Below are positions 7,931-62,518 of a stretch of 64,000 nucleotides of DNA, piece after piece. Source of the stretch: Candidatus Liptonbacteria bacterium (lineage in GTDB: Bacteria > Patescibacteriota > Minisyncoccia > UBA6257 > JACOXY01). The stretch's first letter is position 1, and each line of letters opens with the position of its first letter. The notes beneath the pieces were generated by a model. It searched no databases. It saw only the letters and a program-made list of their open reading frames with translations, and had not been told where the DNA came from. Position numbers and translations under genes: made by a program. The DNA lies in NCBI GenBank assembly GCA_016182095.1, contig JACOXY010000012.1, forward strand, positions 25,864 to 89,863, written 5' to 3'.

Positions 7931-7960
7931 TTGACAAAATGGTGCTTTTTGTGCTATAAT
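7931..7960 (+). promoter_or_regulatory. sigma70-like promoter (TTGACA-18-TATAAT) driving a long structured leader
   Basis: Consensus hexamers. About 175-nt leader with nested hairpins (gtagctt...aagctac; ccacc...ggtgg) before the strong SD at 8126. Confidence 0.5.
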
Positions 7961-8091
7961 ATACTTAGCAAGCTGTGAGAGGTTCCCCTCTAGCCAGCTT
8001 ATAGAGTAGCAAAAAACGCGCAAAAAGGACCCTGCGTAGCTTCCACCTTCGTTAAAACTTCGGTGGACAAGAAAGCTACGGAGGAACAAGG

Positions 8092-8125
8092 GTCGCCTAC
8101 GCTCTACAGAGCTATGGCGGACCAA
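8092..8125. repeat. 34-bp perfect direct repeat, copy 1 (left flank of high-GC cassette 1)
   Basis: gtcgcctacgctctacagagctatggcggaccaa; identical copy at 8600-8633. Confidence 0.8.
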
Positions 8126-8136
8126 GGGAGGAAAGC

Positions 8137-8523
8137 ATGCGAACGAAGGGGATGTTGATGTTGATCGCGGTTTTGACGGTGCTCCTCTGCCTTACGGCAG
8201 TGGAGACGGTATCGGCCGGCTCGCCGGGCTGGAGCAACAGGAGCGGGGGGTTCGGCATTTCCGGCGGCGTAAGCGGTAGGAGCGTGGCGCCGTACGATGT
8301 CTATCAGCGCGGCAACTACTGCGACAACCCCAACCGCTGCCTACGGTGGCGGAGGGCGGGGAGCTACGTCGGATGCGACGGCTGGTCCGGCTCGCAGTCA
8401 GAGAATGCATACTGGCTGGACTTCGACGTCTGGCGCCAGAGATCAAGCCGCAACAGTACCGGTGCGTTGGTCATGGGTGGCGGAAGAGGGCGCGGCGGCA
8501 GAGCGACCGGCTGGCGTAGGTAG
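8137..8523 (+). CDS. high-GC small secreted Gly/Arg-rich protein (likely foreign)
   Basis: Strong SD gggaggaaagc; signal peptide; GC3-rich codon usage that contrasts with its neighbours. Confidence 0.5.
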   Translation: MRTKGMLMLIAVLTVLLCLTAVETVSAGSPGWSNRSGGFGISGGVSGRSVAPYDVYQRGNYCDNPNRCLRWRRAGSYVGCDGWSGSQSENAYWLDFDVWRQRSSRNSTGALVMGGGRGRGGRATGWRR

Positions 8524-8529
8524 AACGGC

Positions 8530-8576
8530 ATCCAGCCGCAGTTTCCCGGAAACTGCGGCTGGATCCCAACTTTTTA
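8530..8576 (+). terminator. terminator (perfect 15-bp stem)
   Basis: atccagccgcagttt-cccgg-aaactgcggctggat followed by a T run. Confidence 0.6.
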
Positions 8577-8599
8577 TATTTCTAAGTGGCTCGTTCCAA

Positions 8600-8633
8600 G
8601 TCGCCTACGCTCTACAGAGCTATGGCGGACCAA
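8600..8633. repeat. 34-bp perfect direct repeat, copy 2 (right flank of cassette 1)
   Basis: Identical to 8092-8125. Confidence 0.8.
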
Positions 8634-8721
8634 AGGTAGTGGGTCATTTAGAAATGTAAATGTATAGAGAAAGTTGTCATGAAAACTTGCGCAAAAGGGC
8701 AATAGGTGGTATTAAACTTGT

Positions 8722-11234: not shown

Positions 11235-11886
11235 GATTGGTTGTTTAGATAGCTACTGGCCGTCCTACAGACGGCAACAAATGTTATTTGTTAAATGTTG
11301 ATTGTTGCCGCCCGCAGGGCGGCTAGAGGAAAGTCCGAGCACTTAGCCTTGTGTTTCGCTCAAGGGAATTCGAAACTCTAATTTCTAAATTCTAAACAAT
11401 ATTTAAAATTCAAATTTCTAAAACTCTAAGCGAGAGCATTCTTTTATAGATTCTCCCGTTTGGAATTTTGAGTTTGTGCTTTGGAATTTGTTTAGGATTT
11501 CGAATTTAGGATTTAGGATTTTCTCGCGCGGAGCGCGAGGCATGAGTAGCGGGTAACGCCCGTCTGGAGTAATCCTAGAGGTGCGAACAGTGACGTCTCG
11601 CCCGAAAGGCGCGGGAAGGCCCAATCCTAAGCTAGTTGGCCTAATTCCGCATAAGGATAAAAAGGCGGAAGTGAAACGGCTAAATCCTTACTTGAGTGCA
11701 AGACCGTACTCTGGATTCTGGGGGCTGGATGCTGGATGTCGGAGTTGATCCGATTTCTAGCTTCCAGTTTCTGGACTCCGGTTTGTGTCGCTTGAGCCCG
11801 AGAGTAATCGAGGGCCCAGATAAATTGCTATTGCCCCTAAACCCGCGAGGGTCGGGGAACAGAACTCGGCTTATTAACAACCAATC
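11235..11886 (+). ncRNA. rnpB: RNase P RNA (bacterial type A-like) with a large AT-rich insertion
   Basis: P4 strands GAGGAAAGTCCGAGC and ACAGAACTCGGCTTA with compensatory changes. P1 pairs gattggttgtt (11235-11245) with aacaaccaatc (11876-11886). About 150-nt low-complexity insertion at roughly 11370-11520. Confidence 0.8.
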
Positions 11887-14717: not shown

Positions 14718-16013
14718 TTGAAAAACATAGTTATCCTTGGCGCCGGCTTCGGCGGCTTAAGAGTTGCGCGAGTACTCGCGAAGAAACTCACGAAGGCCGG
14801 GCTAAATGATAAATACCGGCTAATTTTGGTTGACAGAAACCATTACCATACCTTTACGCCGCTTTTGTATGAAGCCGCAACCACCTCAAAAGAAATAGCG
14901 GATATGGTGGAGCTGCGCACTATAACAACTTTTCAGATAAAACAAATTTTAAGCGGTCTCAAAGTTGATTTTATTAACGCCGAAGTAGAGAAAATTGATA
15001 TTATTACGGGAAAAATAAATTTAAAATCCAATAAAGGACAAGAGGTATTGGCTTTTGACCATCTAGTTATAGCTCTTGGCGCCGAAGTCAATACATTTAA
15101 CATTAAAGGCGTGACAGAGCATGCTTTTTATTTAAAAACCTTCTGGGATGCGATGCGGCTAAGAGATAAGATTATTGAAAACGTTGACGATGGCAAAAAG
15201 AATTTAAAAATAATTATCGGGGGGGGCGGTTCAACCGGAGTTGAATTAGCTGCCGAAATTCAGGGCTGGATTTGCGAGCTTAAAGAGGAGTACCCCAAAG
15301 TCAGGGAGTGTGAGGCACAAGTTTCTATTGTTGAGGGCGCGGGAAGTATTTTGAGTTCGCTCCATCAAAAAATCATAAAAAGGGTTGGGGAGCGGCTCGC
15401 GCACCTTGGGGTCAACACTATAACTAACGAATTCATCTCCGAGGTAGATGCAGACAAAATTTATCTGAAAAGCGAGCGAATTTTGCCTTGCGATATCTTT
15501 ATCTGGGCTGGCGGAATTAAAGCCCCAGCAATTTTAAATCAAGCCGAGCTGCAAAAATCAAAGAATAATGCCCTGCTGGTACAGAACAAAATGCAATGCC
15601 TGTCTGCCGCGCCAGATTTAAAGTTAGGCTCTGCAATTTATGGCCTGGGCGACAGTGTCTGCTTTATAAATCCCAAAAACGGAAAACCTATCCCCTGTGT
15701 CGCGCGACCAGCCATAATTCAGGGGGGAATTATAGCGCACAATATTTTTGAAGATATCATGGTACGGGAGGGTTTAAGCGTGAAAGCTTATCACAAAACT
15801 TTTGTGCCAAGGGAGTACCCGTATATAGTCCCTGCGGGCGGCAAATGGGCGGCGGCAAAAATAGGCCCATTTATTTTTTCCGGAATCTTAGGTTGGGTAT
15901 TAAAGGGATTAGTGGAACTTAACTATTTCTTATCAATATTGCCGGTTTGGTACGCGTTTAAAATATGGTTCAAGGGATTTTATATATTCATAAAAAACGA
16001 CCGGCTTGGCTAA
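14718..16013 (+). CDS. FAD-dependent pyridine nucleotide-disulfide oxidoreductase (NDH-2-like)
   Basis: N-terminal IVILGAGFGG Rossmann motif, second GGGSTGVE motif, C-terminal hydrophobic tail. Confidence 0.65.
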   Translation: MKNIVILGAGFGGLRVARVLAKKLTKAGLNDKYRLILVDRNHYHTFTPLLYEAATTSKEIADMVELRTITTFQIKQILSGLKVDFINAEVEKIDIITGKINLKSNKGQEVLAFDHLVIALGAEVNTFNIKGVTEHAFYLKTFWDAMRLRDKIIENVDDGKKNLKIIIGGGGSTGVELAAEIQGWICELKEEYPKVRECEAQVSIVEGAGSILSSLHQKIIKRVGERLAHLGVNTITNEFISEVDADKIYLKSERILPCDIFIWAGGIKAPAILNQAELQKSKNNALLVQNKMQCLSAAPDLKLGSAIYGLGDSVCFINPKNGKPIPCVARPAIIQGGIIAHNIFEDIMVREGLSVKAYHKTFVPREYPYIVPAGGKWAAAKIGPFIFSGILGWVLKGLVELNYFLSILPVWYAFKIWFKGFYIFIKNDRLG

Positions 16014-16047
16014 AGTACAATGCGAAAACCTTTCAAAAACCCTTATT

Positions 16048-16076
16048 TTGCAAGGGGGAGGTTTTTGTGAGCTTGC
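16048..16076. repeat. imperfect direct repeat, copy 1, flanking high-GC cassette 2
   Basis: ttgcaagggggaggtttttgtgagcttgc versus ttgcaaggcaagaaggtttttgagcttg at 16713-16740. Confidence 0.55.
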
Positions 16077-16101
16077 TTTTTTTATGATTCCGTGTTATAA
16101 T
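16074..16101 (+). promoter_or_regulatory. sigma70-like promoter (TTGCTT-16/17-TATAAT) with a ~180-nt leader
   Basis: Hexamers present; leader contains the hairpin cagtttga-gtttt-caaactg before the SD ggaaggagag. Confidence 0.4.
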
Positions 16102-16279
16102 TAAGAAAGTAAATTAAATGTGAATCTCGGCAGCCATTTGGCCAGATAAAATTTAATCGCCCGAACCTTTTGTCTTACAAAAAGTTTTAGGATGAATTTT
16201 ATATCCGGCTAAACTGCTGCTGAGACGGCGGCCAGTTTGAGTTTTCAAACTGCATTCCCGAGACGGGAAGGAGAGAAAG

Positions 16280-16624
16280 ATGAGAATTGCGATCAGCAGA
16301 TCAGTAAGTTCCGCAGAAGAGATGGTGCGCGCAGCTCTTCAACATACCCCACCAGATATGAATCTGGACGGGACGTGGATGGAGAGGAACTATTGGTCCA
16401 AACCTCTGGATTTAGACGGTGACAATGACCGTGGTGTGCGCCTCACCATCTTCGTTTACCCCGGCATTCTGATCAAGGCCGAATGCGCCGTGTATTCGGA
16501 GGGTGGAAAGTATCAGACTGGAGACATAGAGATCGAGCATCGCGCAAGCGGAAAGAGATGGAAGTTCCATTGCTGGCTGAAGAATCGGAACGACAAAAAA
16601 TTCACCGTTTGCGAAATCGAGTAA
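16280..16624 (+). CDS. hypothetical protein, GC-elevated cassette gene
   Basis: 114-aa ORF with a strong SD; GC noticeably above its surroundings; terminator immediately downstream. Confidence 0.5.
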   Translation: MRIAISRSVSSAEEMVRAALQHTPPDMNLDGTWMERNYWSKPLDLDGDNDRGVRLTIFVYPGILIKAECAVYSEGGKYQTGDIEIEHRASGKRWKFHCWLKNRNDKKFTVCEIE

Positions 16625-16641
16625 AGCGGCTTCTCTAAGCC

Positions 16642-16677
16642 ATCCGGGAACGACACCACCGTTCCCGGATCTTTTTA
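16642..16677 (+). terminator. rho-independent terminator
   Basis: atccgggaac-gacaccacc-gttcccggat followed by ttttt. Confidence 0.65.
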
Positions 16678-16712
16678 TCCCCTCAATCTCTCATTATTAA
16701 AAAATCTTTATC

Positions 16713-16740
16713 TTGCAAGGCAAGAAGGTTTTTGAGCTTG
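16713..16740. repeat. imperfect direct repeat, copy 2, flanking cassette 2
   Basis: See 16048-16076. Confidence 0.55.
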
Positions 16741-16787
16741 TAATTTTATTAAAATCGTATTTTTAAATAAATACCTCTATTATTTTT

Positions 16788-16823
16788 TGTACACATTAAC
16801 TGCTATCGCTTTTATTATGTACA
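16788..16823. terminator. bidirectional terminator-like near-palindrome
   Basis: tgtacacattaactgctatcgc...ttattatgtaca, related to the perfect palindrome at 17667-17702; A/T runs on both sides. Confidence 0.5.
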
Positions 16824-16876
16824 AAAATAAAATGCGTCATTACACAAGATAATGCGGTAATTATACAAACACAACA

Positions 16877-17590
16877 CTAAACAAGATTAAAATACCGCTT
16901 AAGCTCTTGGTCGTTGTTTATATTTTTGGCAGTGATTAGATGCACATATGGCTCAATATTATAAAATCCGCAAAGAAAGTCTACTTCTTTCTTACAGTTA
17001 GTTGGAACAACAAAAACGCTTTTTTGAAGTTTATACGCGCCCATAAGGCATAATTTTTCTCTAAATGACTCTCTAACCTGCTTATGCTCTTCTGGAATAT
17101 CAAAAATTATTAGACGCCAAAAACCGTCCTTCATCCCCGGCGAAAAGCGCATTTTTCCAAAATGCTCTTGAAGTATCTTTGAAAGGCCTCGCTCGGTTAT
17201 TTTCACTTCATATGTTTTTGGAGCTTTCTTCTTTACATCAATATACCCAAGACGCTTGTAATGGCGCCGCGTGACATTAAAATCGTTTTTATTATAAAAC
17301 TGCCTGTGCCGCGTCAGCTTCCCGTAAGCGCCGAGTACATTTGGCGCTACCACCGCAACAGTAACCATCCCGCCGATGGCCAAGAGACCAAGTAGGGCGC
17401 TCCCGATAAAAATTCCACCTTCTTTAGCATAACGCACAACCATTTCTTTTTTGGCTGCCTTTTGAGTCGCTTCCCAGTCAGATTTCATATCTTCAAGTAA
17501 AACATTTTTATATTTTAATAGCGACTTTTCAAGTCGTCTCTTTCGTTTCTTTTCATTATTATTTTTAGATTCATTTTGGATAGTTTTCAT
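16877..17590 (-). CDS. membrane-anchored PaaX-like protein (winged helix + PaaX_C-like domain)
   Basis: N-terminal basic region plus one TM helix. WRLIIFDIPEEHKQVRESFREKLCLMGAYKLQKSVFVVP resembles the PaaX segment WDGKWLLLLSEG...KKQLIWQGFGALAPSLMASP. It is also Cas2-like by eye. Confidence 0.5.
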   Translation of the reverse strand: MKTIQNESKNNNEKKRKRRLEKSLLKYKNVLLEDMKSDWEATQKAAKKEMVVRYAKEGGIFIGSALLGLLAIGGMVTVAVVAPNVLGAYGKLTRHRQFYNKNDFNVTRRHYKRLGYIDVKKKAPKTYEVKITERGLSKILQEHFGKMRFSPGMKDGFWRLIIFDIPEEHKQVRESFREKLCLMGAYKLQKSVFVVPTNCKKEVDFLCGFYNIEPYVHLITAKNINNDQELKRYFNLV

Positions 17591-17666: not shown

Positions 17667-17702
17667 TGTACATATTAACTGCTATAGCAGTTAATATGTA
17701 CA
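17667..17702. terminator. perfect 36-bp palindrome (bidirectional terminator)
   Basis: tgtacatattaactgctatagcagttaatatgtaca, flanked by T runs on both strands; lies between two minus-strand genes. Confidence 0.6.
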
Positions 17703-17812
17703 AAATATTTTTTGCTTCTTGCATAACAAGAACTCAAAGGTTCTGAAAAATTGTGCCGATAATTGTTTCAATATAGTTAGCTCTTATCATGCGCTGATTA
17801 TTACCTCGCTAA

Positions 17813-20173
17813 TTAGTCTCTCAATCTATCATAAACCCTTTGCTCTACCTCCTCTCTTGGGCGACCATATTTTAAGGAGTTCATTTCTTTGAGCTTAGCG
17901 GCATACTCCGGATTATGGATATACGTCAAAGGAATTTTTATGTTAAACGGCCTTGAAGTCCCACCGCTTATTAAAAGCCGCGTGTAGGCGTTTAAGTTAT
18001 CAATGTTTATCAAATCATTCTGGTTAAAAGTGGGCTCAAAAAGCTTGAGCAATGTTTCGGCGTCAGGCGGACCAACGCGGAAAGCAATAGATGTCCCAAC
18101 GTTGCCGAAAACGGCATCACGAATTTTCTCCGTAAGCTGGGCGACATATTGATGCGCCACAATTAAGTTTAGGCGGTATTTTCGCGCCTCGGCTAAGATA
18201 GTCGCGATTGAATCCGTCGTAAAATTCTGAAATTCGTCTATATACATGTAAAAATCGCGGCGCGCGTTCTCACCAGTCGTGTCGGCGCGTGAAAAAGCCG
18301 CCATCTGCAATTTGCCGGTTATTATCATGCCCAAAAGATTTGAGCCCAACTCCCCAATTTTCCCTTTAGAAAGATTCACTAGCAATATCTTCCCTTCATC
18401 CATCACGTCCCTAAACTTAAACACTGATTTCGGTTGGGCTATAATGGGCCGCATATAATCATTGGCGATAAAACTGTTGAACTTTGAAGTAAAGTATGGC
18501 GCCGTGTTTTCTAATGAGTACTCCCCTTTTACTTTAGACGCTTCTTTTTCCCAAAAATCTTTCACTAATGGATTTTTGCATTTCGCGACTAGGCGATTTC
18601 TAAAATCGCTATCGGTAAACACTCGCGGCACATCAACTAAGGTTGCGCCTTCCTCCGGGTCGTCCATTAAAAGAAAGAGGGCGTTTGAAGCGTAGCGCAA
18701 AAACATCGGACCACCGACTAATTTCATGTCAAAAAGCCGATCAAAAATAAGCATGAGTTCGTCCACTATAAAAGATCTTTGCTCCGGTTTTGCGGGATCA
18801 TATTCCAGCATATTCAGCCCCAATGGCCTTGCTAAATCTCCGGGATCAAAAATAATCAGGTCGTCCACGCGCTTTTCCGGAATTGCCTGGAGAAGATTTT
18901 CTATTAAATCGCCATTGGGGTCCAAGACCGCCACGCCTTTTCCGTCCTTAATATCCTTCATCGCCATATTGTAAATTATTGTGGATTTTCCGGTGCCAGT
19001 CTGGCCAACAATATAAACATGGCGGCGGCGATCCTCGTCTAATATAAAAACCGGCTTTGATTCCCCGCGAAAACTCGTCTCGCCTATAAATATGCCGCTG
19101 GTTGGAAGGTTAGTGGGCGGCGCCGCTTCTTTGGCCTTGAGCCATTTAATGCGGGGTATATTGGTGCTTCCGGTCGGCAGATGGAAAAAGCTCGCCATCT
19201 CTTCGCTATTCACGATGATTGCCTGACTGTCGTGAAATTCCCTAAAGGCAAATTGATAGGCAAGCTTGTCCACATTTCTTGGTTTAACAATTTTAAAATT
19301 ATTCCTGAAAGGCGCGCTAAATTGCGAAAATCCGGTCATGAGTCCGTCAACAATCGCATCAGCGTGCATTTTATTAGGACTTGAAGCTATAAGCCGCACA
19401 TTAACCAGGAAAAGCGGCTTGGCAATCTTCGCCTCAAAAGCTTTTACAGCGGATTCGTCTATGATTTTGGATTTTGGTTCTTTTTCATTCTTTTTCTGCG
19501 CGAATGATTTGGCTATGTCTCCAAAAGTTGGCACAGTTTTTAAAATATCTTTTAGCGGAGTTCCCTCCTTTAATCTGTTTAGGGCGTTTTGAATAGATTT
19601 TTTAGCGCTCTTCGGAGCCGGCTTAACCAATACTTGAATAGCGGCACCCTCGCCAATTTCATCCAACCTGGAAAGTCCGCCGACTATTTGGCTAAAAGAG
19701 TCCGCCTCCAGTTCCGCGTAAGTTCTAATGGGAAGAGCGTAGTTTTCCTTTTGGGCTACGTAAAGCGCGGCAACCGTGCCATGAGAATTAAAAATATTGT
19801 AATCGGAAGCTTTTTTAACTTGCGCGTCCGGCCAAATGCTCTGAATTTGCTTTGCCACCGACTCCGCTATATCTCTGTGAACTCCTATATAAAAGTGAAT
19901 ATCTTCGCCAATGTGATGCACCGCCGCCTCTAAAATAAATGGGGTTTTAAGGGAAGAGAGCGCGGAGTAAAGTTGTTCCGAGGCATTTATTTCTTCCTTG
20001 ATATTTTTTGGTTCGCCTTCTTTTTTAGAGCTTCGCGCAAGCTGTACTGAAAAAAGTTCCAGTTCCAAAGAGTGTATCAGCCGCTTATGGCGAGATTTTT
20101 TATATAGAAAATAGGCGCCCCATCCCAAAAGAGCCAAGCCAGCTATTATCAATACCAAGCGAATGTTGCCCAT
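17813..20173 (-). CDS. VirD4/TraG/TraD-like (or FtsK/HerA-like) P-loop ATPase with an N-terminal TM helix
   Basis: N-terminal TM helix; Walker A GQTGTGKST; Walker B-like IDEFQNF; large N-terminal extracytoplasmic-like domain. The family is common in CPR as T4SS-like coupling proteins. Confidence 0.6.
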   Translation of the reverse strand: MGNIRLVLIIAGLALLGWGAYFLYKKSRHKRLIHSLELELFSVQLARSSKKEGEPKNIKEEINASEQLYSALSSLKTPFILEAAVHHIGEDIHFYIGVHRDIAESVAKQIQSIWPDAQVKKASDYNIFNSHGTVAALYVAQKENYALPIRTYAELEADSFSQIVGGLSRLDEIGEGAAIQVLVKPAPKSAKKSIQNALNRLKEGTPLKDILKTVPTFGDIAKSFAQKKNEKEPKSKIIDESAVKAFEAKIAKPLFLVNVRLIASSPNKMHADAIVDGLMTGFSQFSAPFRNNFKIVKPRNVDKLAYQFAFREFHDSQAIIVNSEEMASFFHLPTGSTNIPRIKWLKAKEAAPPTNLPTSGIFIGETSFRGESKPVFILDEDRRRHVYIVGQTGTGKSTIIYNMAMKDIKDGKGVAVLDPNGDLIENLLQAIPEKRVDDLIIFDPGDLARPLGLNMLEYDPAKPEQRSFIVDELMLIFDRLFDMKLVGGPMFLRYASNALFLLMDDPEEGATLVDVPRVFTDSDFRNRLVAKCKNPLVKDFWEKEASKVKGEYSLENTAPYFTSKFNSFIANDYMRPIIAQPKSVFKFRDVMDEGKILLVNLSKGKIGELGSNLLGMIITGKLQMAAFSRADTTGENARRDFYMYIDEFQNFTTDSIATILAEARKYRLNLIVAHQYVAQLTEKIRDAVFGNVGTSIAFRVGPPDAETLLKLFEPTFNQNDLINIDNLNAYTRLLISGGTSRPFNIKIPLTYIHNPEYAAKLKEMNSLKYGRPREEVEQRVYDRLRD

Positions 20174-25268: not shown

Positions 25269-25430
25269 TTGATCTCTCTACCACCCTTCAAAAATTCTGA
25301 AGTAATAGTAGCATATTACAAGTTGATTTGCAATACTTCTGCATATACCCTACACATATTCAAAATATCTCCAAAAATCCTTATCAATAACATTGTGACA
25401 TTCGCCATAATGTCATAATGTTATTTTGCG

Positions 25431-28775: not shown

Positions 28776-28857
28776 ATCAAATATTAAATATTAAAAATAA
28801 AATACACATATCAAAAATTAAAATAGAAAATGGTCGCGGAGCGACACCATATTTTTT

Positions 28858-28905
28858 ATTTTTGCCTATAGCCTGTCGGCTCGGCCGTTTAAGGATATTT
28901 GATTT
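28858..28905. repeat. 48-bp intergenic repeat family, copy 1
   Basis: tttttatttttgcctatagcctgtcggctcggccgtttaaggatattt; reverse complement of 49003-49050 with 3 mismatches. Confidence 0.7.
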
Positions 28906-28951
28906 TTTATTTAATTCTAACAAAATTTACCGCAAAAATACAGATACAATT

Positions 28952-31878: not shown

Positions 31879-32595
31879 ATGAGCATAAATAATCGCACTT
31901 CTACTACCCGGCAGGCGGTGATACTCGCGGCTGGCAAGGGCACAAGAATGCTTCCCTTTACGCAAAGTGTTCCTAAGCCGCTTATGGAACTGAAGGGCAG
32001 GCCGCTTCTGGAATACACCATGCTCGCGTTGCCGAGAGAAGTAAGCGAAATAATTTTGGTTGTGGGATACATGGGAGACCAGATTAAGAATCGCTTCGGC
32101 CGTCGTTTTCAAAATTACAATATTTTTTACGCCGAACAGAAAGAGCCGAAGGGAACTTTTAACGCTCTCGTGGCCGCATCATCAATGCTTCGCGACAACT
32201 TCTTGCTTTTGATGGCCGACGATATCTATTATCGTGACGATATAGAGAATATGGCAAGATACGAAAACGCGATTCTCGTCAAAAAATTAACCGGCAACTC
32301 CGAAAAGTTCGGGCACTGTATAGAAAAAAGCGGCCTTTTACGCGATTTGCTTGAGAAACCAAAAGGCATCCCCAATCCACTGGCCTGTTGCGGCGCCTAT
32401 AAGTTATCAAGAGAAATTTTAAATGAACCGATAATTTACGGCCCAAACGGCGAAGAAGTGCTCTCTCCAATGATTGGTACTTTCGCTAAAAAAATGCCCA
32501 TACATGTAGTAGAGGCAAAATTCTGGCATCCAATCGCGACCCCCGAAGACCTAAAAACCGCAGAACAACATTCTAACATTCGCAATAATGTTTGA
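31879..32595 (+). CDS. sugar-phosphate nucleotidyltransferase
   Basis: AVILAAGKGTRMLP NTP-transferase motif. Confidence 0.7.
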   Translation: MSINNRTSTTRQAVILAAGKGTRMLPFTQSVPKPLMELKGRPLLEYTMLALPREVSEIILVVGYMGDQIKNRFGRRFQNYNIFYAEQKEPKGTFNALVAASSMLRDNFLLLMADDIYYRDDIENMARYENAILVKKLTGNSEKFGHCIEKSGLLRDLLEKPKGIPNPLACCGAYKLSREILNEPIIYGPNGEEVLSPMIGTFAKKMPIHVVEAKFWHPIATPEDLKTAEQHSNIRNNV

Positions 32596-32710
32596 ATGTT
32601 GTAGTTAAGAATTCTAACTTTGGGCTTGTGCTCACACCGACTCATTCCGTCCAAATGAGACGGTTAAACTTGGAATTTGGCTTTTTTGTGGTTATAATGA
32701 GGTGAATTAT

Positions 32711-42670: not shown

Positions 42671-42693
42671 CATTGAGCTTATTATGCAGTTTA

Positions 42694-42727
42694 AACATTC
42701 TAACATTCTTGAGAATGTTAGAATGTT
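42694..42727. promoter_or_regulatory. 34-bp palindrome (15-bp perfect arms, 4-bp spacer) downstream of the ArsR-like gene
   Basis: aacattctaacattc-ttga-gaatgttagaatgtt. Confidence 0.6.
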
Positions 42728-42738
42728 TATTGATGAAA

Positions 42739-43024: not shown

Positions 43025-43058
43025 AGTTTTCCAAAACATTCTAACATTCTCAAGAATG
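43025..43058. promoter_or_regulatory. 34-bp palindrome upstream of the ArsR-like gene (putative operator)
   Basis: aacattctaacattc-tcaa-gaatgttagaatgtt; same arms as 42694-42727 with the spacer inverted. Confidence 0.6.
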
Positions 43059-43186
43059 TTAGAATGTTTTGGAATGGGTAATGAGTGGATAAGAAACCTT
43101 TTGCATTAAACTATGTCAGTAAATGGTTAATACAAGAATGTCGTAATGTTGTGGGCAAGATTTTAAGGTAAAAATCGCTCCGATGT

Positions 43187-48668: not shown

Positions 48669-48998
48669 TTATATGGCCTCCGCAATTTCTTCCATAATCG
48701 CTTGCGGCAAAGGACTCCCCGGCTTGGTCACTCCGGGATACCGCCACGCGGAAATAATTTTCATTTTCCTTATTACTTGTTTCTTGTTACTTGTTACCTT
48801 TTCTGTCATTACCCATATCTCATGAGGCCTTGTCTTGCTCCCCGCCTGCTTCATATATGCAATCGTATCAGGCGCTATCCCCTCCTCAATACGCTTGGGC
48901 CGTGAAATCACACCACGCACCATCTGCTCGGATAATCTGTAAAAACGCATTTTATATTTGGCGTGATTGGTCCAGAAGTATTGTTGCATATAAATCAA
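48669..48998 (-). CDS. hypothetical protein (possible toxin-like small protein)
   Basis: 109-aa ORF; no confident family assignment. Confidence 0.35.
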   Translation of the reverse strand: MIYMQQYFWTNHAKYKMRFYRLSEQMVRGVISRPKRIEEGIAPDTIAYMKQAGSKTRPHEIWVMTEKVTSNKKQVIRKMKIISAWRYPGVTKPGSPLPQAIMEEIAEAI

Positions 48999-49002
48999 AA
49001 AT

Positions 49003-49050
49003 TAAATATCCTTATACGGCCGAGCCGTCAGGCTTTAGGCAAAAATAAAA
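49003..49050. repeat. 48-bp intergenic repeat family, copy 2 (inverted relative to copy 1)
   Basis: Reverse complement of 28858-28905. Confidence 0.7.
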
Positions 49051-49115
49051 ATTACGGTAGTCCTTCGACAAGCTCAGGAACTATATTCACAACCACCCAG
49101 GATTTGCACTATACC

Positions 49116-49940
49116 CTATACCCCATTGGCTATACCCTCTGTTGCAATCTTAATTATTTTTCCAAATTCCTCCGCACTTAAACTCGCGCCACCAACAAGG
49201 GCTCCATCAATATCCTTCTCGCTTAAAAACAATTCGGCATTGGAAGCTGTCACGGAGCCACCATATAGAATAAGAGGGTTTAGGCTAAAGTCCGATGGGC
49301 TCGCCCGTTTAGGGGTATGGGGTTTAGCCATTAGCAGTTCTTTGATGAAGCGAGCCATATTCGCGGAGTCCTGCGGTTTGTCGGGGACGCCGGTGCCAAT
49401 TGCCCAGATGGGCTCATAAGCAACTATAATAGGGTCTGGGGTTTGGGGTATGGGGTATAGGGTTTGAATATTTTTTAGATCCGCTTCGAGTTGGGATTTA
49501 ACATAATCTTTCGCGGCATTAAGACCTTTATCGCGAACCTCCCTGGGCTCACCAACACACAATATCACTTTTAATCCCGCAGCTTCGCAGGCGATAATTT
49601 TCTTATTTATCATCTCATCTGTCTCATGAAGTATCATCCTCCGTTCCGAATGTCCGATTATAGCGTAAGATACGCCAAGATTTCTTAGCATCTTTGGCGA
49701 TATTTCCCCCGTAAAGGCGCCAGCATCTTCCCAAAAAGCATCCTGCGCTCCAAAATGAATGCCCTCATATTCTTTTTTCAGAGCCCGGTTAATTAATTCT
49801 TCCAGGTGCGTAAAGGGCGGGGCTACCACCACGCGAGCTCCGTATTTTTCAGCAAATTTTTCCGTTGCGTCAAAAAGATCGCGGGCTTCGTCCAAAGTAA
49901 CGGGGTTCATCTTCCAATTGGCAATTAGCAGTTTCTTCAT
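49116..49940 (-). CDS. tpiA: triosephosphate isomerase
   Basis: IANWKMN; AIIGHSERR; GGASL. Confidence 0.85.
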   Translation of the reverse strand: MKKLLIANWKMNPVTLDEARDLFDATEKFAEKYGARVVVAPPFTHLEELINRALKKEYEGIHFGAQDAFWEDAGAFTGEISPKMLRNLGVSYAIIGHSERRMILHETDEMINKKIIACEAAGLKVILCVGEPREVRDKGLNAAKDYVKSQLEADLKNIQTLYPIPQTPDPIIVAYEPIWAIGTGVPDKPQDSANMARFIKELLMAKPHTPKRASPSDFSLNPLILYGGSVTASNAELFLSEKDIDGALVGGASLSAEEFGKIIKIATEGIANGV

Positions 49941-52324: not shown

Positions 52325-52447
52325 TTTTCTTATTCCATTCTCTGGTTGCAAACTACGGTAAGTGTAGCACTTAGAAATTATTGCTGTCAATATAGAAAGG
52401 GCCCGAGGAAAATTCCCCGGGCCTCGAGTTCTGACGGCCTGCTGATT

Positions 52448-52768
52448 TCAGACAGCAGGCAGGTTCACGAGCTTCGCGCGGAGAGCGCGCAGACGTCTCC
52501 GGCCAAGCCAGAGAGCGTCCGAAACGCTCTTCAGCAGATCCCGCAGTCCGTCCGGAGTCTCGGGACACACTGCCCCAGCATCGTACCCGGCCTCCGCGGC
52601 CAGGCGATCGAAGAGCTCGCGCGCCTTGATGTTGCCAACCACCAAGGGATTGAACCGTGGATCCCGCTCGGCCTGCACCAGAAACCCGTACAGAGCCGCC
52701 GCCGGATCGCGCATCTGGCTCCCGATCTCCGTCTGGATGTCCAGACGCCTCTTCTCGTTATACTTCAT
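52448..52768 (-). CDS. high-GC hypothetical protein (cassette 3, likely foreign)
   Basis: Strong SD gaggaggaaagg before the ATG; GC3-rich codons; its own TTGACA-17-TATAAT promoter and a ~110-nt hairpin-containing leader. Confidence 0.5.
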   Translation of the reverse strand: MKYNEKRRLDIQTEIGSQMRDPAAALYGFLVQAERDPRFNPLVVGNIKARELFDRLAAEAGYDAGAVCPETPDGLRDLLKSVSDALWLGRRRLRALRAKLVNLPAV

Positions 52769-52875
52769 GCCTTTCCTCCTCGCCCGTCCTAAACCAGTTT
52801 TACTGGTTGGATTAGGGCTGTTTTTTGGCTAAGTAGCACCATGCTACCTAGCATCCCAACCAGCATCCTAATTGT

Positions 52876-52904
52876 CATTATATTATAAAATTTTCATTTT
52901 GTCA
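52876..52904 (-). promoter_or_regulatory. sigma70-like promoter (TTGACA-17-TATAAT) for the high-GC gene 52448..52768
   Basis: Reverse complement reads ttgaca-aaatgaaaattttataa-tataat. Confidence 0.5.
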
Positions 52905-52907
52905 AGC

Positions 52908-53264: not shown

Positions 53265-53458
53265 CCAGGTAGTAGAAATGCGAGTGAAGTTTTTGAAAAA
53301 TATGGTAACACCATCGATCAAATCCACAGAGATATTATCGGTCAGTATTTATACCCGATCGATAACAATCGATAACCTCGTCAATTGAACGATCGTTTGT
53401 TATACGAGGTCTTGGAGTTGGTAGAAAGAAATGCTCGTATTTTCACTACCTGGTCAAG
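53263..53458. mobile_element. ~196-bp MITE-like element A with terminal inverted repeats
   Basis: The ends ccaggtagtagaaatgcgag / ctcgtattttcactacctgg are inverted copies. The core (~130 bp) is 95%+ identical to the reverse complement of 62259-62390. Confidence 0.6.
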
Positions 53459-62258: not shown

Positions 62259-62445
62259 ACCAGGTAGTGAAAATGCGAGCATTTCTTTCTACCAACTCCA
62301 AGACCTCGTATAACAAACGATCGTTCAATTGACGAGGTTGACGAGGTTATTGATTGTTATTGATCGGGTATAAATACTGAACGAGAAGCAGAAATCGAAC
62401 CCGCGTCTCAACCTTGCCGGGTAGTAGAAGTGCGATTACATTTTT
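62259..62445. mobile_element. MITE-like element B, inverted copy of element A, abutting tRNA-Gly
   Basis: 62259-62390 is about 95% identical to the reverse complement of 53330-53458. A second 20-bp motif copy (ccgggtagtagaagtgcga) lies at 62417. A tRNA-3'-half-like remnant (gcgggttcgatttctgc) lies between them. Confidence 0.55.
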
Positions 62446-62518
62446 GGAGCAGGATACCGGAATCGAACCGGCACTCCAACCTTGGGAAGGTTGTGTACTG
62501 CCACTATACTAATCCTGC
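62445..62518 (-). tRNA. tRNA-Gly (anticodon CCC)
   Basis: Reverse complement gcaggattagtatagtggcagtacacaaccttcccaaggttggagtgccggttcgattccggtatcctgctcca; anticodon loop ttCCCaa; CCA encoded. Confidence 0.75.

Follow-up and report, generated by a model that had tools for sequence, protein, structure and literature searches.

What kind of unit is a small gene that has its own promoter, leader and terminator, stands between unrelated genes and is bracketed by direct repeats, and how did it come to be there? The question is raised by positions 16032-16770 of a 64-kb stretch (the window, which is the whole of the DNA analysed) of a metagenome-assembled genome of Candidatus Liptonbacteria, a member of the candidate phyla radiation (CPR, or Patescibacteria). 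CPR bacteria live as episymbionts with very small genomes, and their accessory genes are mostly orphans. An earlier note on this DNA had described the unit as cassette 2, the second of three GC-rich cassettes with the same layout, and had suggested that the three share a mechanism of acquisition or form a family of small leader-controlled genes. Taken as a whole, the locus is best explained as a self-contained, horizontally exchanged module that carries its own leader and sits in a variable slot, the direct repeats being frames of that slot and the module part of an imported allele, and we hold this explanation with moderate confidence.

A stand-alone transcription unit

Apart from the leader, which is described below, the unit has the following signals.

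16073-16101, plus strand: promoter, read from the sequence, with TTGCTT (16073-16078), a 17-nucleotide (nt) spacer and TATAAT (16096-16101), the last preceded by TGt, which makes it an extended -10 element
16280-16624, plus strand: open reading frame (ORF) of 114 amino acids (aa), identical to HYT12_02685
16642-16670, plus strand: stem of an intrinsic terminator that runs to 16678, found by a terminator scan; the stem has 11 base pairs (bp), 7 of them GC pairs, and is followed by a T-tract

Most of what the earlier note had read at this locus is borne out. The ORF is present and has the strong Shine-Dalgarno sequence ascribed to it (AAGGAG at 16268-16273, 6 nt 5' of the ATG), the promoter is there with its spacer now placed at 17 nt and its -10 element recognised as extended, and the strong terminator follows the ORF at 16642-16670. 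The leader, put at about 180 nt, runs from about 16108 to 16279 and so measures about 170 nt, and the hairpin described in it is found. A generic promoter scan did not list 16073-16101 because the -35 hexamer is weak, agreeing with the consensus at only three of six positions. Across the window, -10 elements of the GTGKTATAAT type are enriched (20 observed, 7.2 expected), and the terminator at 16642-16678 is single-copy. The description of the unit as GC-rich holds only in part: relative to the 44 long ORFs of the window, GC at third codon positions (GC3) is mildly raised (0.59 vs 0.45, z=2.6), but for the ORF as a whole the term overstates a GC content of 0.50 (z=1.6). These signals support cassette 2 as a stand-alone transcription unit with what looks like a functional structured leader.

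A very rare protein family

The 114-aa protein matches only itself in clusters at 90% identity. An exhaustive HMMER search of 1.84 billion representatives returned ten proteins at E<=0.001, the query included, and thus uncovered a tiny family, without annotation, of about ten clusters. The nine remote homologues are 24-41% identical to the query; eight of them have 104-170 aa and are 32-41% identical. A profile search added no further members but placed some of them in Paceibacterota genomes, and a metagenome scan with a narrower alignment of the family yielded only two further loci. The conserved alignment columns are those of an N-terminal helix motif, SKSVSFAIEMVRA, which reads SKSVSFAIEMVRAxLRHTP in the alignment, and of a C-terminal W-x-F-x-C (WKFxC). 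Homologues whose upstream sequence could be inspected are themselves stand-alone units, each with a consensus promoter, a leader and a terminator.

The AlphaFold2 model of the protein (predicted local distance difference test score 78.6) has one helix packed on a six-stranded antiparallel sheet. No fold in the PDB or among viral structures matched this model at E<=0.001, and Pfam and NCBIfam scans of the proteins of all three cassettes gave nothing above noise. Because homologues share its motifs, because codon-position GC follows the order GC3 > GC1 > GC2 and because the AlphaFold2 model is confident, we judge the cassette 2 ORF to be a real gene of a very rare, unannotated family.

A structured leader kept with the gene

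Between promoter and ORF lies a leader that recurs in front of the homologues.

16120-16279, plus strand: family-specific leader, consisting of P1, the linker GAGACGGYRGCC, P2 and P3 (covariance model R1, 83.2 bits, E=1.5e-20)
16125-16226, plus strand: P1, a long hairpin whose base, TCTCGGCAGCCATTTGG / CTAAACTGCTGCTGAGA, is homologous to the P1 of the family and whose apex is an insertion (from fold and alignment)
16233-16252, plus strand: P2, an 8-bp hairpin, CAGTTTGA-gttt-TCAAACTG, with 98% of its alignment cells paired across the family
16256-16275, plus strand: P3, TCCCG-aga-CGGGA, five pairs with 97.5% of cells paired, its 3' arm running into the ribosome-binding site AAGGAGAG

The leader (about 16108-16279) folds at -55.9 kcal/mol, with z = -4.2 vs shuffles. 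The hairpin singled out earlier, cagtttga/caaactg, is P2 of this conserved leader, in full cagtttga/tcaaactg. By eye, the leader is recognisable at six other loci of the family (L013, L014, L018, L020, L021 and L022), and in the aligned leaders its elements come in the order P1 (CUCGGCAGCGAUUUGGU ... ACUAAAUCGCUGCYGAG), the linker GAGACGGYRGCC, P2, GAAUCC and P3 (CCYG-aga-CRGG). The P1 helix has about 23 bp, and the CCYG/CRGG arms of P3 covary. RNAalifold recovered P1, P2 and P3 with 13 covarying pairs. When the sequences were aligned with MAFFT, 95.2% of cells were paired and 13 pairs had changed on both sides, a result reached by none of 500 shuffles; sliding the 3' partner by 1-3 columns as a control lowered pairing to 38-46%. 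Model R1 also found a copy on which it had not been trained, directly 5' of a homologue in the Paceibacterota locus L031 (67 bits). With L031 included, the alignment of eight sequences has 95.9% of cells paired (slid controls 37-46%) and compensatory changes at 18 of 36 pairs, among them seven of the eight P2 pairs, although this alignment was fitted to model R1, so that the compensatory count leans towards the model.

G-U pairs are frequent in P1, which argues that its structure belongs to the sense-strand RNA rather than to a palindrome in the DNA. A search of the whole window with Rfam 15 at the gathering threshold returned three tRNAs only, and within 15900-16900 at E<=10 it gave only sub-threshold, microRNA-like matches to long hairpins. 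The idea that cassette 2 is leader-controlled is supported by the comparison, since the leader is kept with the gene at eight loci, with compensatory changes. Its position and its compensatory pairing are those of a structured cis-regulatory 5' leader in the general sense, and we regard it as a candidate for a new cis-regulatory RNA.

How might such a leader work? The hairpin series in the 5' untranslated region, the last hairpin overlapping the ribosome-binding site, is like the leaders of ribosomal-protein genes and the RNase III-processed leaders of rnc and pnp, and with the latter it has in common a helix of about 22 bp suited to RNase III; unlike all of these, it matches no Rfam family in sequence or model, and the gene family behind it is uncharacterised. 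Most likely the leader would act in cis on translation initiation, on mRNA processing or on both. P3 would partly mask the ribosome-binding site, and P1, with its roughly 23 bp, is a plausible RNase III-type substrate or stabiliser that appears to tolerate apical insertions. The motif YUGAGACRG, read from the sequence, is present twice, and together with the conserved linkers it suggests a protein partner, for which the encoded protein itself is our preferred guess.

The leader could instead be a metabolite-sensing riboswitch that places the gene under the control of a small ligand. Its conserved structure includes conserved unpaired linkers (GAGACGGYRGCC and GAAUCC), the overlap of P3 with the ribosome-binding site recalls that of translational riboswitches, and the two copies of YUGAGACRG would permit alternative pairings with the 5' arm of P1. 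However, the helices are three simple hairpins in a row, with neither a junction of several helices nor an obvious pocket, P1 can take up 45 extra nt at its apex and is all but missing at L014, and the downstream gene has no metabolic annotation and the leader no Rfam match. We consider ligand sensing less likely because of the simple hairpin series, and rate a riboswitch as distinctly improbable.

A variable slot between conserved genes

Unit and leader lie in a slot whose flanks and second filling are as follows.

14718-16013, plus strand: left anchor, an NDH-2-like FAD oxidoreductase gene (NDH; Pfam Pyr_redox_2)
16877-17590, minus strand: second filling of the slot, a PaaX_M-domain gene (Pfam PaaX_M, E=7.5e-20)
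17813-20173, minus strand: right anchor, a DUF8128/DUF87/TrwB/TraG-like ATPase gene (Pfam) that resembles a type IV coupling protein

The gene order DHH, PGK, NDH-2-like gene, slot, DUF8128 ATPase and CTP synthase is common to the window and to two related loci, L005 and L006; the NDH of L005 is 63% identical to that of the window. This synteny was obtained through protein homologues and contig look-ups, a genome scan for relatives of NDH with the single protein having found none, and two more distant NDH loci (L032 and L033) have no ATPase neighbour. What fills the slot is unrelated from genome to genome: the 114-aa gene plus the PaaX-like gene in the window, genes of 142 and 158 aa in L005, and genes of 170 and 87 aa in L006. 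In L005 and L006 this slot is thus occupied by other genes and lacks cassette 2, and the PaaX_M gene is absent from both as well. An L006 slot gene was considered as a PaaX homologue, which would have shown a PaaX-type allele in a relative; the comparison was negative. A Pfam scan of the L005 cargo, and of the L031 cargo described below, gave no match. The same flanking genes with different cassettes between them are what a slot of the minimal-mobile-element type would present. On both sides of the PaaX_M gene, whose domain is Cas2-like, stands a 42-nt near-perfect palindrome, TGTACATATTAACTGCTATAGCAGTTAATATGTACA (16782-16823 and 17667-17708), which could be an operator, a bidirectional terminator or an insertion end.

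The signals around the cargo appear to belong to the slot and not to the gene family. The terminator CCGGGAACGRCACCACCGTTCCCGG and the 15 nt after it have a counterpart behind the unrelated L005 cargo (89% identity over 46 nt), and the frame on the upstream side, from the hairpin up to and including the extended -10 element, aligns between window and L005 with a score of 28 (shuffles 10.1 +/- 1.75, none of 1000 reaching it). This homology ends a few bases after the -10 element and resumes at the terminator stem, so that the swapped segment would be essentially the transcribed region. Elsewhere, the cassette 2 family has a conserved 3' untranslated region and terminator of its own, different from those here; since its members use these at other loci, the gene and leader of the window would sit inside signals owned by the slot, namely the terminator at 16642-16678 and the promoter frame.

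An array of such units is present at 1900-5400 of L031 (Candidatus Paceibacterota, GCA_041671265), immediately upstream of a DUF8128/DUF87/TrwB ATPase gene. Four unrelated ORFs there have behind them one and the same 32-nt terminator (94-100% identity), and four related promoters recur along the array, the fourth of which drives the cassette 2 homologue with its leader. GC3 of the four ORFs is 0.35-0.81, vs about 0.23-0.35 in the flanking genes, and several genes of the array stand at 0.74-0.81, vs about 0.30 in the host. Small orphan ORFs, the formation of arrays and a conserved hairpin after each ORF are also traits of integron cassettes. Unlike these, each unit has its own promoter (in cassette 2 one with an extended -10 element), and the 3' hairpin, unlike attC, has a perfect GC-rich stem of 11 bp before a T-tract and is hence a terminator, as judged without a formal attC model; nor is any integrase family found among the called genes around the unit or in the gene list of the L031 array, as an integron would require.

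The closest slot systems are the minimal mobile elements of Neisseria and the effector/immunity arrays beside type VI secretion genes of Vibrio cholerae, for which the proposed mechanism is DNA uptake followed by homologous recombination on one side (PMC3082526, PMC5361080). As in these systems, the genes on either side are conserved and the whole-gene cassettes in the slot between them vary from genome to genome, and a new module stands beside an old one, accompanied by a relic of the neighbouring conserved gene, from its 3' end (described below). Unlike in them, short non-coding frames that enclose precisely what is transcribed are among the anchors, the cargo consists of orphan genes, the neighbour is coupling-protein-like, and exchange is inferred from sequence.

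The setting also bears on a possible phage origin of the unit, as a moron or as what is left of a prophage. A moron is a gene with its own promoter, a terminator and a shifted composition, and cassette 2 has all of these (GC3 z=2.6); like a moron, it is a single gene between unrelated ones. However, its neighbours are housekeeping genes in conserved synteny (the called genes around the unit being DHHA1, PGK, Pyr_redox_2, PaaX_M and the DUF8128/DUF87 ATPase), not the phage context in which a moron lies, and it differs from morons further in lacking phage homologues and in carrying a conserved structured leader. A tblastn search of 50,697 phage records gave no match, IMG/VR holds no relative of any of the three cassette proteins, and the leader pattern is absent from viral contigs. 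A phage origin is therefore the most remote of the explanations considered.

Duplicated frames and the origin of the unit

What, then, are the direct repeats? The earlier note had seen about 29 bp of them; they are real and longer, at about 74 nt.

16032-16104, plus strand: frame copy A1, the left repeat, comprising the hairpin after the NDH-2-like gene and the active promoter; homologous by alignment to the L005 frame
16697-16770, plus strand: frame copy A2, the right repeat, comprising a degenerate terminator hairpin and promoter-like stretch; by alignment the more diverged copy
16675-16694, minus strand: relic of the 3' end of an ATPase gene, reading ..ERLRG* and aligning to the stop codon and last codons of the L005 gene

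Without gaps, 16032-16082 aligns in register with 16697-16747, 665 nt further on. Gapped alignment extends the repeats to about 16032-16104 and 16697-16770, at about 75% identity, with a score of 29 vs 10.3 +/- 1.75 for dinucleotide shuffles, none of 2000 of which reached it. Each copy consists of a terminator-like hairpin and then a promoter-like stretch, and we take the flanking repeats to be two diverged copies of the terminator-plus-promoter frame of the slot. Between the terminator of cassette 2 and A2 lies the 20-nt relic, which A2 directly follows and which matches the real end of the ATPase gene in the window (17813-17832) at 16 of 20 positions. In L005, the ATPase gene converges on the cargo, and its stop codon and the terminator behind the cargo overlap. 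The layout is thus frame, cassette 2, terminator and ATPase end, followed by frame, PaaX-like block and ATPase, which reads as two alternative fillings of one slot placed in tandem. The resemblance of A1, but not of A2, to the L005 frame agrees with separate origins for the two copies, one older than the other.

Taken together, the repeated frame and the ATPase relic point to import from a related allele. A segment comprising frame, leader, ORF, terminator and ATPase 3' end would have come from a related genome with an allele of the L005 type, and would have been joined upstream of the resident allele, with its frame and PaaX-like gene. The likely route would be homologous recombination on the side of NDH and the frame and an illegitimate join at the far end, or else entry of a circularised fragment by a Campbell-type single crossover; recombination that is homologous on one side only has been proposed for the effector/immunity arrays beside type VI secretion genes (PMC5361080). 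That the unit was acquired, as the earlier note had supposed, is supported by the significant repeats that bracket it and by its absence from the slot in the relatives.

Alternatively, the unit might be a mobile element that inserts just 3' of intrinsic terminators by means of a dedicated enzyme making wide staggered cuts, so that the repeats would be long target-site duplications. Repeats that differ from locus to locus do surround the unit at three independent loci of the family: about 74 nt in the window, 44 nt at 95% identity in L013 (38-81 and 993-1036) and 66 nt at 94% identity in L022 (1743-1808 and 2503-2568), the last two loci being on metagenomic contigs. Both in the window and in L022 the repeat holds a terminator hairpin directly 5' of the promoter of the unit. 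What characterises an insertion sequence or transposon (a transposase or terminal inverted repeats, and a short perfect duplication) is not what is found here, where the sole ORF is the 114-aa orphan and the repeats of about 74 nt are imperfect. Neither the unit nor its immediate surroundings encode a transposase or integrase, the repeats are imperfect elsewhere too (about 75% identity in the window, 94-95% at the other loci), and duplications of 44-74 nt are far longer than known transposases make. Import of a whole allele accounts better for the ATPase relic and for a terminator of the slot type, and A1 but not A2 resembles the frame in the relative L005. We therefore consider a mobile element unlikely, and return to the imported allele as the explanation that we favour.

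Several points weigh against it or against parts of it. No close relative without the unit was found, the four contigs that carry the protein all coming from one population, and the donor and recipient alleles are for this reason hypothetical. The similarity of A2 to the L005 frame is not significant, and repeats of 44-74 nt around the unit at three unrelated loci could reflect a dedicated insertion mechanism. The -35 hexamer of the putative cassette 2 promoter is weak. For the leader, covariation rests on 7-8 related sequences, in a family that has only about ten members; L014 has only a stub of P1, and a subfamily (L015 and L030) has no recognisable leader. Autoregulation by the 114-aa protein is only a guess because the protein has no assigned function.

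A palindromic repeat in the apex of P1

The alignment of the leaders has about 45 extra columns in the apex of P1 that are occupied in the window only, and the leader is about 170 nt long in this genome vs about 110 nt elsewhere in the family. The insertion is a copy of a palindromic repeat that is found across the CPR and was recognised with a model, R2, built without the window copy.

16155-16195, plus strand: copy of the CPR-wide palindromic repeat, TCGCCCGAAC, a hairpin and GTTTTAGG, with the core AATCGCCCGAACCTTTTGTcttACAAAAAGTTTTAGG (model R2, 45.3 bits, E=1.7e-7)

Thus the leader appears to be long here because the repeat was inserted in the tolerant apex of P1. The repeat is built of variable hairpins with two conserved linkers, TCGCCCGAA and GTTTTAGGGCTAAA, between them. 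When species-representative genomes were scanned with a pattern, it turned up in five CPR genomes (one each of Paceibacterota, Saccharibacteria and Minisyncoccia, and two of Nomurabacteria), and its occurrences were located as follows.

Window: 16155-16195; 49268-49330; 11832-11860 (minus strand); 52778-52820
L005: 2649-2755; 3778-3817
L008: 6232-6376; 6659-6702
L009: 368-405; 637-736
L010: 2753-2793; 3033-3071
L011: 6041-6081
L012: 5832-5872

In four of the five genomes (L008-L010 and L012) the repeat stands directly against the 5' GGGG of the transfer-messenger RNA (tmRNA) gene, and in L009 and L010 R2 also matches inside that gene. Protein genes are affected as well. In L005, one copy lies just 3' of the NDH stop codon and two tandem 66-nt units lie in frame within the NDH gene, so that the protein has 480 aa rather than 431; the insertion is absent from the NDH of the window and so constitutes one presence/absence polymorphism. 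Within the 64 kb of this genome that the window covers, R2 gives one strong copy and three weak ones, among the latter an in-frame remnant that lacks the hairpin, in the triosephosphate isomerase gene (49268-49330, peptide KPHTPKRASPSDFSLNP).

A repeat that is dispersed, forms hairpins and occurs in frame in protein genes and also in RNA genes would belong with the palindromic repeats of the Rickettsia palindromic element or miniature inverted-repeat transposable element kind. The closest known kind is that of the Rickettsia palindromic elements and the Correia elements (PMC2229807, PMC2649163), the former of which are likewise known from within protein-coding genes and tmRNA (PMC2229807). Like these elements, the CPR repeat is short and palindromic and lies in intergenic DNA, in frame in protein genes, within tmRNA genes and in 5' leaders, to which it adds a hairpin. 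Unlike them, it combines the motifs TCGCCCGAA and GTTTTAGGGCTAAA with variable hairpins, spans several CPR lineages and recurs directly against the 5' end of tmRNA. The repeat has no match in Rfam, and no description of it was found in the literature searched. It might also be a known self-cleaving ribozyme or a tmRNA promoter, but it has neither an Rfam match nor convincing hexamers. A kink-turn reading of its internal loop was dropped after inspection by eye.

Comparison with cassettes 1 and 3

Does cassette 2 form a family with the other two cassettes? The earlier note's reading, that all three are members of one leader-controlled gene family with one mechanism of acquisition, can point to a common layout: a consensus-like promoter, a leader of 100-170 nt, a GGAGG-type ribosome-binding site and a small orphan ORF. 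Cassettes 1 and 3 also have in their -35 regions an exact 11-mer, TTGACAAAATG, of which the window holds only these two exact copies; the leader of cassette 3 has an antisense match to the CPR repeat, which is marginal (16.7 bits, E=0.15) and only suggestive; and L031 shows that arrays of such units exist.

The supposed likeness of the three leaders did not survive comparison. A search of the window with R1 finds 16120-16279, nothing at cassettes 1 and 3 even at E<=10, and as its sole other match a 25.9-bit antisense echo of the same cassette 2 hairpin. The three proteins have no mutual similarity at E<=0.01 and no Pfam or NCBIfam family in common, and the three terminators are unrelated. Of the shared layout, the promoter, the strong ribosome-binding site and the terminators, one upstream and one behind the ORF, are indeed common to the cassettes, but this likeness is generic and weak, and the geometry of the repeats differs. 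In cassette 1 (7931-8640), the repeat of 37 nt at about 97% identity (8092-8128 and 8600-8636) brackets only the ORF and the terminator, its left copy lying inside the leader just 5' of the ribosome-binding site; cassette 3 (52380-52905, minus strand) has only a 15-nt, 80% match. The ORF of cassette 1 (8137-8523) encodes a protein with a signal peptide and an isoelectric point of 10.5. With a GC3 of 0.81, this ORF and that of cassette 3 (52448-52768, GC3 0.76) are strong outliers (z>5), an extreme shift beside the mild one of cassette 2. The 37-nt repeat of cassette 1 was also considered as a divergent copy of the CPR repeat; R2 gives no match there. What stands of the proposed common mechanism or family is that cassette 2 is probably an acquired module with a leader; neither leader nor protein is common to the three, and we regard a single family as very unlikely.

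A broader possibility, to which we give little credence at present, would embed the imported module in a general scheme. Parcubacteria-type CPR bacteria might possess an integrase-free cassette platform in which short conserved frames enclose precisely the transcribed cargo, the cargo could be swapped or stacked by recombination between frames, and such units lie preferentially beside the coupling-protein-like ATPase. The frames would consist of a terminator and an extended -10 promoter on the upstream side and, on the downstream side, a terminator common to the units, and the cargo would be highly expressed, often GC3-rich orphans, possibly substrates of the ATPase that are secreted or interact with the host. 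Among these would be cassette 2, with its own regulatory leader, and cassettes 1 and 3 would be dispersed examples.

Other repeats in the window

The window contains further repeats. A family of intergenic 36-nt palindromes (AAACATTCTAACATTCT..AGAATGTTAGAATGTTT), distinct from the CPR repeat of the leader, occurs at 42693-42728, 43034-43069, 32566-32601, 25388-25423, 1608-1643 and 1970-2005. Inverted repeats at 53335-53454 and 62259-62387 (86 nt at 97% and an adjacent 50 nt at 92% identity) bracket about 8.8 kb; the segment 53335-62387 adjoins tRNA-Gly (62445-62518) and may be invertible or mobile. Another inverted repeat, of 83 nt and 84% complementary, has its arms 20 kb apart, at 28846-28928 and 48976-49058.

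Implications for CPR genomes

Three things appear to be new here, all of them resting on few sequences. One is the candidate cis-regulatory RNA, tied to a rare protein family. Another is the occurrence of framed cassette slots and arrays beside a coupling-protein-like ATPase, holding small genes predicted to be strongly expressed; the framed slot suggests how CPR genomes may trade accessory genes without dedicated recombinases. The last is a palindromic repeat that is shared across CPR lineages and seems to have invaded leaders, tmRNA genes and housekeeping proteins, and that would thus parallel the Rickettsia palindromic elements in another group of reduced genomes.

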